Below, one piece after another: positions 3,552-41,395 of a stretch of 64,000 bases of DNA. The notes under the pieces are model-generated. The model did no database searches and was not told the DNA's origin. It saw nothing but the letters and a program-made list of their open reading frames with translations. Source of the DNA: Gemmatimonas sp. (GTDB taxonomy: Bacteria > Krumholzibacteriota > Krumholzibacteriia > LZORAL124-64-63); NCBI GenBank assembly GCA_013824755.1, contig PNOJ01000001.1:14474-78473 (forward strand), in the 5' to 3' direction. The translations under genes and the position numbers were made by a program. Position 1 is the first letter of the stretch. Each line of letters starts with the position of its first letter.

Positions 3552-3638
3552 GGAGGGCTAGTCCTAACTGGTAAGGCAGCGGTCTTGAAAACCGCCGGGA
3601 GCGATCCCCTGGGGGTTCGAATCCCCCGCCCTCCGCCA
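3552..3638 (+). tRNA. tRNA-Ser (anticodon UGA)
   Basis: Cloverleaf with 7-bp acceptor GGAGGGC/GCCCTCC. Anticodon loop CUUGAAA is identical to E. coli tRNA-Ser(UGA). Long variable arm, TTCGAAT T-loop, CCA end. Confidence 0.8.
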
Positions 3639-3650
3639 GGATCACAGGCG

Positions 3651-3738
<88 letters not shown>

Positions 3739-3751
3739 GACCCCTGTTGGC

Positions 3752-3828
3752 GCGCCCATAGCTCAACTGGACAGAGCATCTGACTACGGATTAGAAGGTT
3801 GGGGGTTCGAATCCTCCTGGGCGTACCA
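3752..3828 (+). tRNA. tRNA-Arg (anticodon ACG), copy 1
   Basis: Acceptor GCGCCCA/TGGGCGT. Anticodon arm TCTGA-CTACGGA-TTAGA. T-arm GGGGGTTCGAATCCTCC. Ends in CCA. Confidence 0.85.
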
Positions 3829-3831
3829 CCT

Positions 3832-3867
3832 CGAAGGCCCCGTCGCACTGAAGCGGCGGGGCCTTCG
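3832..3867. terminator. Bidirectional stem-loop terminator between the tRNA cluster and convergent nikR
   Basis: Perfect 11-bp stem CGAAGGCCCCG/CGGGGCCTTCG, followed by TCTTG. Confidence 0.5.
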
Positions 3868-5089: not shown

Positions 5090-5633
5090 GGAAGAACCCC
5101 CGTGCGTCCAGGGCCTGGGCGATCTCGGCGGCGTCGTGCTCGGCCCGCCTGAGGAACCAGGCGCCGGCCGCCGCGCCGTGGCGCAGCGAAGCGGCCGTCG
5201 AGACCCGGCGCGGCGAGCGGCTGAGCAGGGCCAGCCGGAAGTCCGCGTGGAGCCGGCGGAACGTCAGCACCTGGCTGACGGTCAGCACCAGCGCGAAGCG
5301 CAGCGTCCGCGAGAAGCCCAGCGCGCGCTGCAGGTCGAGGCGGGCGGCCAGCGCGAAGGTCAGGCTGGTCATCAGCAGCACGCGCAGGTTCAGCCGCAGC
5401 AGCGCGGCGCCGGCCGGGCGCTGCTCCCACCAGGACGCCGCCAGCCAGCCCAGCGAGACCGCCGCGGCGAACGGGGCCGCGGCGCGCGACGCCCGCGCCA
5501 GCACGCGCGGCGCCCGCCTGCCGGACGCGAGCAGGACCGCCGCCAGCGCGGCGGCGAGCCGGGCGGGATCGTGCACGAACGTCGCGGCCACGATCGCGCC
5601 GAGGTAGAGCAGCAGCAGGGCGCGGTCCCTCAC
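5076..5633 (-). CDS. cbiQ: CbiQ/NikQ transmembrane component
   Basis: Hydrophobic CbiQ-like sequence. GTG start with GGAGG RBS. GTGA overlap with the cbiM stop and TTGA overlap with the cbiO start. The upstream part of the table ORF is a spurious extension. Confidence 0.75.
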   Translation of the reverse strand: MRDRALLLLYLGAIVAATFVHDPARLAAALAAVLLASGRRAPRVLARASRAAAPFAAAVSLGWLAASWWEQRPAGAALLRLNLRVLLMTSLTFALAARLDLQRALGFSRTLRFALVLTVSQVLTFRRLHADFRLALLSRSPRRVSTAASLRHGAAAGAWFLRRAEHDAAEIAQALDARGFFLDRR

Positions 5634-8629: not shown

Positions 8630-8638
8630 GCCGCGGTC

Positions 8639-8715
8639 GCGCCCATAGCTCAATTGGATAGAGCATCTGACTACGGATTAGAAGGTTGGGGGTTCGAATC
8701 CTCCTGGGCGCGCCA
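8639..8715 (+). tRNA. tRNA-Arg (anticodon ACG), copy 2
   Basis: Same cloverleaf as copy 1. It differs at 2 D-loop positions and in acceptor pair 1-72, and has a G discriminator. A perfect hairpin (8719-8747) follows. Confidence 0.85.
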
Positions 8716-8718
8716 CTT

Positions 8719-8747
8719 CGAGCGACCCGCCGCCGGCGGGTCGCTCC
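8719..8747 (+). terminator. Stem-loop after tRNA-Arg copy 2
   Basis: GAGCGACCCGCC-GCC-GGCGGGTCGCTC, a perfect 12-bp stem. Confidence 0.45.
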
Positions 8748-9355: not shown

Positions 9356-9443
9356 GGAGAGTTGCGAGAGCGGTCGAATCGGCACGACTGGAAATCGTGT
9401 GTACCGCAAGGTACCCAGGGTTCGAATCCCTGACTCTCCGCCA
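9356..9443 (+). tRNA. tRNA-Ser (anticodon GGA)
   Basis: GGAGAGT acceptor, anticodon loop CTGGAAA, long variable arm, CCA. Confidence 0.85.
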
Positions 9444-9458
9444 TGATCGCGAACGGGC

Positions 9459-9548
9459 GGAGAGGTGCCGGAGCGGTTGAACGGGGCGGTCTCGAAAACC
9501 GTTGAACACGCAAGTGTTCCCAGGGTTCGAATCCCTGCCTCTCCGCCA
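9459..9548 (+). tRNA. tRNA-Ser (anticodon CGA)
   Basis: GGAGAGG acceptor, anticodon loop CTCGAAA, long variable arm, CCA. Confidence 0.85.
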
Positions 9549-9581
9549 TGATCGCCGCGACGATGAAAGACAGGACCGGGT

Positions 9582-9657
9582 GGGGATGTAGCTCAGCTGG
9601 GAGAGCACTACGTTCGCAACGTAGGGGTCGTCGGTTCGAACCCGATCATCTCCACCA
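9582..9657 (+). tRNA. tRNA-Ala (anticodon CGC)
   Basis: GGGGATG acceptor with the G3-U70 Ala identity pair. Anticodon loop TTCGCAA. GGTTCGAAC T-loop. CCA. Confidence 0.8.
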
Positions 9658-9705: not shown

Positions 9706-9812
9706 GATGGGCCAGGCCCGGTGCGACGCCGGTGAGCTAACCCCGTCAGGACTGGAAAGTAGCAGCGGTACGCGGAAGCTGTCGTGTGCGCCGCCAGCCT
9801 GGCCCACCTTCC
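9706..9812 (+). ncRNA. ffs: Signal recognition particle RNA (small 4.5S type)
   Basis: Terminal helix GGGCCAGGC/GCCTGGCCC. Domain IV motif GTCAGGACTGGAAAGTAGCAGC matches E. coli GUCAGGUCCGGAAGGAAGCAGC, with compensatory base-pair changes around the GGAA tetraloop. Conserved ffs-dnaX-ybaB-recR synteny. Confidence 0.7.
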
Positions 9813-22525: not shown

Positions 22526-22600
22526 CTGGGGCGTCGTCAAGTGGTAAGACACAAGGTTTTGGTCCTTGCATTCGCAGGTTCGAATCCTGCCGCCCCAGCC
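22526..22600 (+). tRNA. tRNA-Gln (anticodon UUG)
   Basis: U1-A72 acceptor pair, anticodon loop TTTTGGT, GGTTCGAATCC, CCA. Confidence 0.85.
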
Positions 22601-28349: not shown

Positions 28350-30134
28350 ATGGAGTGCAGTCGTCGCTGGGGTCGGGTCCTGGTCTGGTGCCTGGTGATC
28401 GCGGCGGGCGCCTGCGCCGGCGGTGGCGGCGCCGACCGCACCGGGCGCTCCCTCACGAGCGCCGAGCGCGATCTCGCCGGGCGCCTGTTCGCGCGCCAGC
28501 AGGAGGAGCACGGCCTCGGCAACGACCGCGCCGCGCTTTCGCTGGGGCACGAACTGATCGACCGCTACCAGGGTTTTTCGCGTCTGGACGAAGCGACGCG
28601 GCTGGCCGCCCTGTCCGCGCGCCGCCTGCACGATCCCGGCGCAGCCCTCAAGCTGACGGGCGAATTCCTGGCGTCACACCCCGACGCGCCGGGAGCGGAC
28701 GCGCTCCTGGACCTGCGGGCCGAACTCCTGCTGGAGGCGGGTGACGCCCCCCGCGCCGCCGAAGCCCTCGTCCTGCTCTACGATCGCGCCGACACGGCGT
28801 CCGCCCGCGAGGACGCTGGGTCGCGGCTGACCACCACGGCCGCCGCCCTGCCCGCCGACACCCTCGACGCCCTGCGCGCCGCCCACCCCGGTTCCGGGAC
28901 CCGCCCGCTGCTGGGCTACCTCTGGACCGGCAAGTTGCTGGCCGAACGCCGCGACGGCGAGGCGCGCGACGCCGTGGCCGTCCTGCGCGGCGAAGCCCCC
29001 GCCGACGCCTGGACGGCGAAGGCCGAGGCCCTGCTGGGCGACCCCGAGGCGGCGGTGCTCGCCGAGCGCCCGCTGCGGCCCGGCCCCGCCGGCATCGACC
29101 CGCAGCACGTGGCCGTGCTCTGTCCGTTGACCGGCCGGCACACCGTCCTGGGCAACGCCTACTACGACGGGGTGCGTCTCGCGCGCGACGAGGCGGGACG
29201 GCGCGGCTGGCGCCAGTACACCTTGACCGCACACGACTCGGGGAACGACCCGGTCGCGGCCGCGCTCGCCGCGCGACGGCTGCTGACGGAGAAACCCCCG
29301 ATCGCCCTGATCGGCGCCCTGCTGAGCTCCCCGACGGTGGCCGTGGCGCTGGTCGCCGGGGAAGCCGGATTGCCCCTGATCTCGCCCACGCCCACCGCGT
29401 CCGCGCTCGAGGACCTGGGGCCGTGGGTGTTCGCCACCGGTGACGACGGGGGCGCCGCAGCGCGGCTGGCGGCCCGCTTCGCGGTCGAGTCGCTGCACCT
29501 GCCGCGCGTGGCGGTGCTGTATCCGGACGACCCGGCCGGGCTGCGGCTCTACGAGCTGTTCGCGACCGAGGCGATCGAGCGCGGCGGGACCCTGGTCGCC
29601 GCCGAGGCCATCCCGGCCGCCGCCGCCGACGCCGCGGAACTCGTGCGCGGCCTCGCCGCGACCGGTCCGGAAGCCGTCTACGTGCCCGTGGACCCGTCGC
29701 GGCTGCCGCCCCTCGACGCGCTGGCGGACCTGGCCGCGACCGGTGTCCTGATCCTGGGCCCGCGCAGCTGGAACGCGCCCGCGTCGGCCGACGCACTCGG
29801 GGCCGCGCTGCCGCGACTCGCCTTCCCGGGCGAGGCGAACGACGGCGGAGACGGCTGGCCGGCGCGCTTCGACGCGCTCTGGGATGCGCAGGGGCGGCCG
29901 CAGGAAGCCACGGACGTGGCGCGCCAGGCCTTCCTGGGCGCGATGCTGCTGTTCGACACCCTCGGCGAAAGCGGGGCGACCACCCCGACCGATCTCGCCG
30001 CCGCGCTCCGCGCCCGCCTCACCAGACTGCGCGCCGCCGACTGGACGACCGAAGGACTGCCCGCCGCGATGCGCACCATTCAACACGGCGTGATCGTGCC
30101 CTACCCGACGCCCGACGCTCTCCTGAAGAACTGA
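28350..30134 (+). CDS. LpoA-like two-domain periplasmic protein (TPR-like helical N-domain plus type-1 periplasmic-binding fold)
   Basis: Signal peptide, helical repeats, then a LivK/ANF-receptor-like domain. The giant table ORF 26877..30134 is only real from about 28350. Confidence 0.55.
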   Translation: MECSRRWGRVLVWCLVIAAGACAGGGGADRTGRSLTSAERDLAGRLFARQQEEHGLGNDRAALSLGHELIDRYQGFSRLDEATRLAALSARRLHDPGAALKLTGEFLASHPDAPGADALLDLRAELLLEAGDAPRAAEALVLLYDRADTASAREDAGSRLTTTAAALPADTLDALRAAHPGSGTRPLLGYLWTGKLLAERRDGEARDAVAVLRGEAPADAWTAKAEALLGDPEAAVLAERPLRPGPAGIDPQHVAVLCPLTGRHTVLGNAYYDGVRLARDEAGRRGWRQYTLTAHDSGNDPVAAALAARRLLTEKPPIALIGALLSSPTVAVALVAGEAGLPLISPTPTASALEDLGPWVFATGDDGGAAARLAARFAVESLHLPRVAVLYPDDPAGLRLYELFATEAIERGGTLVAAEAIPAAAADAAELVRGLAATGPEAVYVPVDPSRLPPLDALADLAATGVLILGPRSWNAPASADALGAALPRLAFPGEANDGGDGWPARFDALWDAQGRPQEATDVARQAFLGAMLLFDTLGESGATTPTDLAAALRARLTRLRAADWTTEGLPAAMRTIQHGVIVPYPTPDALLKN

Positions 30135-30159
30135 ACGTCGGCTCTGGCCTGAGCATGTC

Positions 30160-30350
30160 CCTCCCCAGCGCCTTGATGCTGTTCGACTCGGATCCACACA
30201 TGCGGTCGTGAATGGGGTGTCTGCTGGTCTCCTGCGCCAGGAGGGCGCAGGAGACCGGAAGCCAAGCGCGCCGGGCACACGAGGTGCCCGGCGCGCGTCC
30301 CCATTCACGACCGCATGTGTGGATCCGAGTCGCATCACATCAAGCGTTGG
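30160..30350. repeat. Nested palindromic element (MITE/REP-like or structured RNA) between convergent genes
   Basis: Perfect 34-bp inverted repeat (30185-30218 and 30300-33033 region partner at 30300-30333). Flanking imperfect IR extensions. Two internal perfect 13-bp hairpins (30227-30257 and 30267-30297). Confidence 0.6.
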
Positions 30351-30383
30351 GGGAGGGACAAGCTTCGAGCCAGAAGCTACGGC

Positions 30384-31079
30384 TCAGGGAGCAGCGGTTC
30401 GGGGGTTGTGGAAGGTCACGGTCAGGACGTTCCAGAACCCCGCGGGATCCGCGCAGGCGGCGAAGTCCGGGTCGTAGAGCCAGCGGTCGACGGCCCTCAG
30501 CACGACGGCGGCGAACTCCGGACCGGCGTCGGACTCCAGGACGTAGGAGCCCTGCACGGTGCCGTCGGGACCGACGAAAAAGGCCGCCTTGACCGTCAGC
30601 ACCGGCGCCGACCGATCCAGGGGCGAGGCGTCGGCGGGGTAGCGCGGGTAGATCTGCCGCAGCAGGTGGAAGCAGGGGTTGGTCGGCGTGGGCAGGTTCA
30701 GCTCGACGGTGTCGCGCAGGTCGACGATCTCGGCCTCCACGTCGGCGTCGGGAGCGGGCGGGGCCGGCGCGACGGTGACCGGCCGCGTGCCCCGCTCGTC
30801 TGGCTCCACGACGTAGTCCGGGACCGGCGGCGTGGCGAGCCTGGCCAGGCGCGCGGCTTCCTGGTGCGCGGGATCGCTGCCGTCGTCGATCGAGATCTGC
30901 GGCATGATCTTCAGCGGTCCCGGCGCGCCAGCGAAGTCCCAGCGCTCGTGCACCCGTTCCCGGTCCGGCCCGATCAGGACCATCACCAGCAGCACGAGCA
31001 CGGCCGCGACGGCCGCGGCGCCGTAGCGCCGCCGCAGGTCGTGGTCGCGCTCGCGGCGGCGCCGGTCCAGATCGGTCAT
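30384..31079 (-). CDS. TonB-family energy transducer
   Basis: N-terminal TM helix, Pro-rich linker, C-terminal TonB domain (VLTVKAAFFVGPDGTVQGSYVLESDAGPEFAAVVLRAVDRWLYDP). ATGA overlap with the upstream amidase. Confidence 0.7.
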   Translation of the reverse strand: MTDLDRRRRERDHDLRRRYGAAAVAAVLVLLVMVLIGPDRERVHERWDFAGAPGPLKIMPQISIDDGSDPAHQEAARLARLATPPVPDYVVEPDERGTRPVTVAPAPPAPDADVEAEIVDLRDTVELNLPTPTNPCFHLLRQIYPRYPADASPLDRSAPVLTVKAAFFVGPDGTVQGSYVLESDAGPEFAAVVLRAVDRWLYDPDFAACADPAGFWNVLTVTFHNPRTAAP

Positions 31080-33403: not shown

Positions 33404-33449
33404 CGGAACCCTCCTCGGTGCATCGGTGAGGGTAAGGGCGGCGCGTCCG

Positions 33450-33491
33450 GGTGTCCAGCCGCGGTCGGGTCGACGGCCGCGGCTGGACACC
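33450..33491. promoter_or_regulatory. Perfect 15-bp inverted repeat in the divergent amidase/selA promoter region
   Basis: GGTGTCCAGCCGCGG-N10-CCGCGGCTGGACACC. A TGGTATTTTGGA AT-rich patch lies downstream. Confidence 0.3.
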
Positions 33492-33584
33492 GGGTGGGGC
33501 GTCTGGTATTTTGGACGGCCAGCGAACGCCGGCCGTCCCATCGGGCCGGCGTGATCGTCGTGTGCGGCACTGAACGGCAGGTCC

Positions 33585-41231: not shown

Positions 41232-41395
41232 TCTCAACTTCGGGGCGGGGTGGAATTCCCCACCGGCGGTCACAGCCCGCGACCCGGCGGCGCACCACGC
41301 GCAACCGGCTGATCCGGTGGAACTCCGGGGCCGACAGTCACAGTCTGGATGGGAGAAGTTGGGTCCGGCGCGCCCGTCGACACGGGCGGCCGCTT
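41232..41395 (+). ncRNA. FMN riboswitch (RFN element)
   Basis: CTTCGGGGCGGGGTGGAATTCCCCACCGGCGGT...AGCCCGCGA...GATCCGGTGGAACTCCGGGGCCGACAGT...AGTCTGGATGGGAGAAG matches the RFN consensus. A CGCCCG-TCGACA-CGGGCG hairpin and a pyrimidine-rich tract lie before the ribD start. Confidence 0.85.

Follow-up and report, generated by a model that had tools for sequence, protein, structure and literature searches.

In this work we consider a 64-kb stretch of DNA (the window, by which we mean the whole stretch analysed) and ask why the gap between two of its convergent genes should be occupied by a large, nested palindrome. A sequence-only reading of the locus had described two perfect 34-bp inverted-repeat arms with imperfect outward extensions, enclosing two perfect 13-bp hairpins. 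Both the arms and the hairpins are present and perfect, with all of their positions corrected by one base (arms at 30184-30217 and 30299-30332, hairpins at 30226-30256 and 30266-30296), and the outward extension is likewise real, giving arms of 66 nt with 85% complementarity (30152-30217 / 30299-30364). The features of the locus are as follows, with the orientation of the core (+) defined by the order hairpin 1 to hairpin 2.

30140..30378 (239 bp), no strand: whole palindromic element, one copy of the repeat family, delimited by its folds and by full-length homology to other copies
30140..30183, no strand: left outer arm, pairing imperfectly with 30333-30378
30184..30217, no strand: left arm of the perfect 34-bp stem, sequence CGACTCGGATCCACACATGCGGTCGTGAATGGGG
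30218..30298, + strand: conserved core of 81 nt (89 nt with the closing GGGG/CCCC)
30226..30256, + strand: hairpin 1, 13-bp stem (30226-30238 / 30244-30256), loop AGGAG, covarying across copies (helix 2)
30266..30296, + strand: hairpin 2, 13-bp stem (30266-30278 / 30284-30296), loop ACGAG, covarying across copies (helix 3)
30299..30332, no strand: right arm of the perfect 34-bp stem
30333..30378, no strand: right outer arm, with terminal GCCAGAAGC followed by TA
28350..30134, + strand: upstream flanking gene, periplasmic solute-binding protein (Peripla_BP_6)
30384..31079, - strand: downstream convergent gene, TonB_C-like protein of 231 aa

The two genes end in TGA stop codons at 30132-30134 (+) and 30384-30386 (-), leaving a gap of 249 bp that is occupied by a near-complete palindrome whose edges lie 5 nt from each stop codon. 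The end of the left outer arm, GGCTCTGGCC, matches the family terminus GGTTCTGGCC, the termini of the element read GGCTCTGG preceded by CGTC and GCTTCTGG preceded by GTA, and the core is bordered by GGGGTGTC and GGGGACGC. In the minimum-energy fold pairing spans 30140-30378, with RNA folding energies of -199 kcal/mol for the + strand (z = -16.6) and -193 kcal/mol for the - strand (z = -17.3), and a DNA folding energy of -118.9 kcal/mol for the + strand (z = -17.8). None of 200 shuffled sequences folded as well, placing the structure far beyond chance, and the two strands fold about equally well; the fold of each strand, which had been proposed as a check, is thus very stable on both (RNA z about -17). 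No comparable structure was found elsewhere in the 64-kb window, where the next-best local inverted repeat has arms of 38 nt at 71% complementarity. A separate hairpin at 33447-33494 (21-nt arms, 90% complementary, 6-nt loop), unrelated in sequence to the repeat family, sits in a divergent gap upstream of an amidase gene and adjoins a SelA gene.

The element is without coding capacity: no gene is called at the site and its only ORFs are mirror-image artefacts of the palindrome. The peptides PHSRPHVWIRV and PFTTACVDPSR, earlier pointed out as shared by phantom ORFs, do occur on both strands, as a trivial consequence of a perfect inverted repeat.

Comparison with related genomes reveals that the element was acquired. 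Orthologs of the flanking binding protein share 100, 88, 80, 80, 79 and 77% identity, and in relatives at 77-80% protein identity (loci L005-L011 and a JGI contig) only 13-27 bp separate the same convergent genes. L002/L003, the relative at 88%, has a homologous element between the two genes. It shares the three-helix architecture, and its stem, which differs in sequence from that of the window at one third of positions, is still perfectly complementary. A closer relative, L140, is 93.8% identical to the window over 4.3 kb and carries a very similar element at the same site, which departs from that of the window at 2 of 89 positions in the core and by the replacement of both bases of one stem pair, G-C becoming T-A. 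Since the site is empty in the 77-80% relatives and filled in the closest ones, the gain of the element falls within the ancestry of the window lineage, and it has been evolving at this site since then.

The copy in L002 is itself composite. Positions 5211-5472 (= L003 5162-5423) are nested: a remnant of 35 nt from an older copy, belonging to a left outer arm like that of the window, precedes a complete and younger copy of an abundant subfamily. The binding-protein gene of L002 reads into the remnant, so that its product has another C-terminus and is longer (609 vs 594 aa), the TonB_C-like gene has its last codons and stop within the end of the element, and a 53-aa 'gene' has been called inside it.

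The sequence-only reading had likened the element to a MITE or REP-like mobile repeat and proposed a search for further copies. Within the 64-kb window, both a 21-mer search (allowing 3 mismatches) and a covariance model of the family returned the single copy, and the 21-mer of its inner arm, CACATGCGGTCGTGAATGGGG, had no exact match in species-representative genomes or JGI metagenomes, the inner-arm variant of the window being private to its lineage. The family came to light only after comparison with the L002 ortholog, which supplied the conserved patterns. An arm pattern, CGACTNGGATCCNCACAT, shared by the four arms of the copies in the window and L002, was scanned against species-representative genomes and gave paired opposite-strand matches at 21 loci in 5 related MAGs (DYDD01, which is GCA_020718045.1, JADJIV01, JADJYS01, JAUSBL01 and JANOEP01), the two matches lying 131 nt apart in 19 of 21 cases. 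The pattern also gave scattered single matches in unrelated taxa, and numerous single matches at the contig ends of a short-read MAG, where some copies are truncated. Repeats that break assemblies typically leave single matches at contig ends. The JADHED01 contigs are further carriers of the family. Closely related MAGs with family copies go under the names 'Fibrobacter sp.', 'Candidatus Latescibacterota bacterium', 'Gemmatimonas sp.' or simply 'bacterium', labels that are mutually inconsistent for genomes whose flanking genes are 90-98% identical.

In BLAST searches and alignments, 23 full-length copies align end to end, giving a consensus of about 215-230 bp with the termini GGTTCTGGCC...GGCCAGAACC. 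A second pattern, taken solely from the invariant hairpin tops of the core, recovered 71 further loci in metagenomes, with up to 5 per contig (5 on a 246-kb contig, and 3 on a 578-kb contig that carries the ortholog of the window), and the covariance model confirmed about 80 elements among these core-pattern loci. Pattern scans and covariance model together bring the total to about 100 copies across the five MAGs and metagenome contigs. The core pattern had 0 matches in a viral contig collection, giving no link to phages. The family thus exists as a set of dispersed copies, all from one uncultured, very GC-rich bacterial lineage, and at the locus under study the site is empty in distant relatives and filled in the closest; the suggestion of a mobile repeat is in this respect borne out.

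Key to understanding the family is the distribution of conservation along its members. The best conserved part is the core, which is asymmetric, contains the two small hairpins and measures 89 nt from GGGG to CCCC in 29 of the 30 copies first examined. With its GGGG/CCCC, the 89-nt core of the window is 93% identical to a copy at another locus (L119 284-372), and the top of hairpin 2, GGGCAC-ACGAG-GTGCCC, is nearly invariant across the family. Two core variants were distinguished: the window type ('type A'), in which hairpin 1 is fully paired, and that of the abundant and most uniform subfamily (e.g. L026 6805-6893), in which hairpin 1 contains a 3x3 internal loop, 5'-GNA / 5'-GNA (G.A, N.N, A.G), at positions where the window variant has Watson-Crick pairs. 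The N.N position mostly holds the same purine twice (GG 16, AA 8, CG 6, other combinations 7). This loop forms a conserved imperfection within an otherwise perfect palindrome.

The stem, by comparison, is constant in length and perfection and variable in sequence. A length of 34 bp is common to most copies. Of 95 distinct copies, 48 have a perfect stem of exactly this length and 14 more have 33/34 pairs; among copies found with the core pattern only, the stem is perfect in 28 of 66 and has 33/34 pairs in 12. This latter set comprises 42 distinct arms whose median pairwise identity over 34 nt is only 0.38. In the first 30 copies, changes on both sides were found in 27 of 33 stem pairs, and about 91-95.9% of cells were paired vs 79% in column shuffles and 31-43% when partner columns were slid. 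Beyond the 34 bp the arms pair imperfectly and form the fastest-changing part of the element. We considered whether the 89-nt core alone might be the mobile unit, inserting into pre-existing hairpins, and rejected this, since residual homology persists between the arms of divergent copies (GTGACAGGGG and outer TGTCCC/GGCC blocks); the one 'solo core' (L188) arose from a full copy by deletion. A by-eye resemblance of the three-way junction to a type I hammerhead ribozyme was likewise discarded, as the core is without CUGANGA and its GAA is not adjacent to helix III, and the hammerhead models of Rfam do not match the core.

For many copies, orthologs exist among the five MAGs and metagenome contigs, with the result that recent movement could be shown in a few cases only. 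Over 18 orthologous pairs the mean identity was 0.93 in both stem and core, 0.92 in the flanks and 0.84 in the outer arms, values biased upward because copies were found via conserved core or arm bases. A general tendency of stems to mutate faster than their flanks was considered and found no support (0.93 vs 0.92 in these 18 pairs). Individual pairs do stand out: L145/L146 differ by at least nine compensated stem pair changes at 95.5% flank identity, and in L156/L164 and window/L002 likewise the element has diverged much further than its flanks. The sequences of these outliers suggest that a copy may be replaced or converted from other copies.

Gain and loss are seen at several sites. In the filled/empty pair L187/L189 the insertion falls right after a TAG stop codon, the copy being 5'-truncated and without a clear target duplication, and L060/L082 carry a copy that is absent from L132. 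About 12 of 30 ends have TA before the terminus, a pattern suggestive of TA as a possible target site, to be read beside the single filled/empty pair, whose 5'-truncated copy shows no TA duplication. Younger copies lie beside older ones at about 4 of 16 sites, some copies are nested, and deletion derivatives among them indicate decay by deletion. At L016 6586-6700 an orthologous copy has lost part of its core, so that the arm motifs are 97 nt apart, not 131.

No transposase partner was found among 893 clustered ORFs from 93 copy-bearing loci. The families that recur near copies, namely sigma-54 activators, FlgD_ig-tailed proteins, MacB/FtsX permeases and MCPs, are ordinary paralogous families. 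Genes bracketed by two copies included no transposase among those examined, being a 215-aa protein, a methyltransferase, an AdoHcy hydrolase and a protein without a match above the Pfam cutoff. The 215-aa gene (L085 1622-2269 (-), L136 1288-1935 (-), with orthologs in L026, L062 and L175) is bracketed in several genomes by two copies of different subfamilies; its product appears secreted by eye, and one ortholog has a weak, sub-threshold similarity to DUF3108 while the other has none.

The strength of the covariation raises the alternative that the family is a multi-copy structured ncRNA gene or cis-regulatory RNA, with a functional core and a 34-bp closing stem kept by RNA-level covariation. 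All 3 of the helices covary very strongly, a conserved core is combined with a stem of variable sequence, the fold z-score is about -17, and the GNA/GNA purine loop in hairpin 1 of the younger subfamily is of a style common in RNA. Set against this, the stems are almost exclusively Watson-Crick. An RNA helix selected on one strand normally shows many G-U and few A.C pairs; here 38 of 2414 stem pairs are non-Watson-Crick (G.T 13, A.C 6, other 19; in the core-pattern-only set G.T 10, A.C 6, other 16), wobble pairs being as rare as other mismatches. Copies nearly always abut the 3' end of a gene and show no orientation bias relative to their neighbours (by heuristic ORF calls, tandem contexts divide 16 vs 21 by orientation, with 27 convergent and 11 divergent), and both strands fold equally well. 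The almost exclusively Watson-Crick stems and the mixed orientation point to a palindrome maintained at the level of DNA, or on both strands, and not to an oriented RNA gene. Rfam 15 returned nothing for the element at gathering score and only chance-level hairpin matches (E >= 0.36) at permissive thresholds, no sigma-70-like promoter was found in it, and no hairpin with a U-tract was found on either strand of 29900-30650, so that promoter-like and terminator-like signals are both lacking at the element; furthermore, contig-end truncations, nesting and deletion decay resemble mobile DNA. We regard the structured RNA, which the sequence-only reading had offered beside the mobile repeat, as distinctly unlikely. 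The same Rfam search identified, elsewhere in the window, a full-length FMN riboswitch aptamer (41232-41364 (+), 107.5 bits), two tRNA clusters (3552-3825, 8639-8712, 9356-9654, 22527-22598) and a bacterial small SRP RNA (9710-9807); one tRNA and its 3' flank are duplicated at 91% identity (3751-3846 vs 8638-8733).

Position alone might suggest no more than a bidirectional terminator, evolved at this very site to serve the convergent pair, as the element is GC-rich, extremely stable and placed exactly between the two stops, 5 nt from each. About 100 homologous copies at unrelated loci, including tandem and divergent contexts, refute this as a sole explanation; moreover, relatives manage with a 13-27-bp gap at the site and neither strand has a U-tract. 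We give this reading a next to negligible probability, in keeping with the earlier remark that a simple terminator does not need so much structure, the structure being that of the repeat family. A third alternative, which we hold to be very unlikely, is a family of immobile, host-domesticated DNA sites whose core, folded or cruciform, would be a binding site for a host protein involved in supercoiling, nucleoid organisation or recombination. It would fit with the many insertions orthologous across several species, with conserved imperfections confined to the core, and with the identity of stem and core in orthologous pairs (mean 0.93 vs 0.84 for outer arms), although this last estimate is inflated by search patterns that required conserved core or arm bases. 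Against this reading, turnover continues, as filled/empty and nested cases show, many copies are decaying by deletion, and there is no known candidate for the binding protein.

We conclude that the element is very probably one copy of a MITE/REPIN-like family of non-autonomous palindromic repeats, about 215-240 bp long and intergenic, which is apparently undescribed so far. The oddly large structure between the convergent genes is thereby explained as a repeat copy, not as a bespoke regulatory device. As a non-autonomous repeat, the family would spread by transposition via an enzyme encoded elsewhere, which may recognise the conserved core or the ends, while the stem would be kept perfect at the DNA level through arm-on-arm templating, copy-to-copy conversion or selection on two strands. 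With the element 5 nt from each stop, both convergent transcripts would run into it and each would gain a very stable 3' hairpin able to stop or stabilise it. It is reasonable to infer such a role, which would be a by-product use of the kind proposed for REP elements.

The family is an ordinary kind of selfish DNA, notable solely for the perfection of its long hairpin. A perfect 34-bp stem that turns over in sequence around an asymmetric core nevertheless leaves room for a more interesting mechanism, and a stem of fixed length that is perfect and fast-changing offers a natural case for studying how long DNA palindromes stay perfect, with arm-to-arm correction, copy-to-copy conversion and selection as the candidates. 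The family also adds a repeat from a poorly known, uncultured lineage, and represents a source of false gene calls, as in the 53-aa 'gene' of L002 and the gene C-termini that extend into the element. Should a dedicated enzyme exist, the conserved core marks where to look.

Among known systems, the family is first to be set beside the bacterial MITEs and related repeats. It has several features of a MITE, being small (239 bp, below about 600), with terminal inverted repeats that comprise the whole element, dispersed copies and presence/absence differences. In Correia, ERIC, RUP, YPAL and similar elements the terminal repeats are conserved and match a known IS, and the target duplication is defined, being TA in the case of Correia elements. 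The family resembles these bacterial repeats in its size range (100-300 bp), in its long inverted arms and absence of coding sequence, in its intergenic location, mostly at gene 3' ends, in its presence or absence between relatives, and in its likely co-transcription into stable RNA hairpins. It differs in that conservation is lowest at its ends and that it has no known parent IS.

A second comparison is with the GTAG- and CGTC-tagged REPs and the TIR families flanking Y1 'TIRYT' genes (Di Nocera et al. 2013, PMC3733652). These lie mainly between unidirectional and convergent genes, downstream of coding regions, and some of the TIR families are self-complementary, with a GGGG-led motif, GGGGWSAS, in common (PMC3733652). 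Copies of the present family are similarly found downstream of genes in unidirectional and convergent contexts, the window termini follow CGTC and GTA, and GGGG-led sequences occur at the core (GGGGTGTC, GGGGACGC). The tags are, however, inconsistent, other copies reading CTA, TTA, GTA or other bases, the GGGG motif of the family misses one position of the GGGGWSAS consensus, and the unit is far larger than a 20-40-bp REP.

The closest parallels in behaviour are these tagged REP and TIR families and the REPINs, doublets of REP sequences that form hairpins and owe their mobility to RAYT tyrosine transposases (Bertels and Rainey 2011, PMC3116915). REPINs are some 70-110 bp long; their two REP ends are highly conserved, the spacer between them less so, and the two sides of the hairpin often carry compensatory changes (PMC3116915). 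Like REPINs, with which it shares copy numbers of tens or more per genome, the family consists of non-coding extragenic palindromes that would form a long hairpin in single-stranded DNA or RNA; some of its copies are clustered, its stem is kept by compensatory changes, and it has persisted vertically over long periods within its lineage. In contrast to REPINs, the halves of the element are not self-palindromic REP units and no RAYT gene lies next to any copy examined. The pattern of conservation is also the reverse of that typical of MITEs and REPINs, as here the centre is conserved and the arms, including the 34-bp stem, are variable, where REPINs have conserved ends. Because this departs from a defining feature of REPINs, we file the family as MITE/REPIN-like and as a member of neither. 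A bolder reading, which we consider rather unlikely, is that the repeats are the visible half of an undescribed mobile system based on hairpin DNA, in which the core would be read as folded single-stranded DNA by an enzyme of HUH/tyrosine or similar type and the stem, of exactly 34 bp, would be regenerated or corrected arm against arm, its complementarity remaining perfect as the sequence drifts. If so, the family would represent a vertically inherited replicator comparable to REPINs, with a pattern of conservation opposite to that of the known ones.
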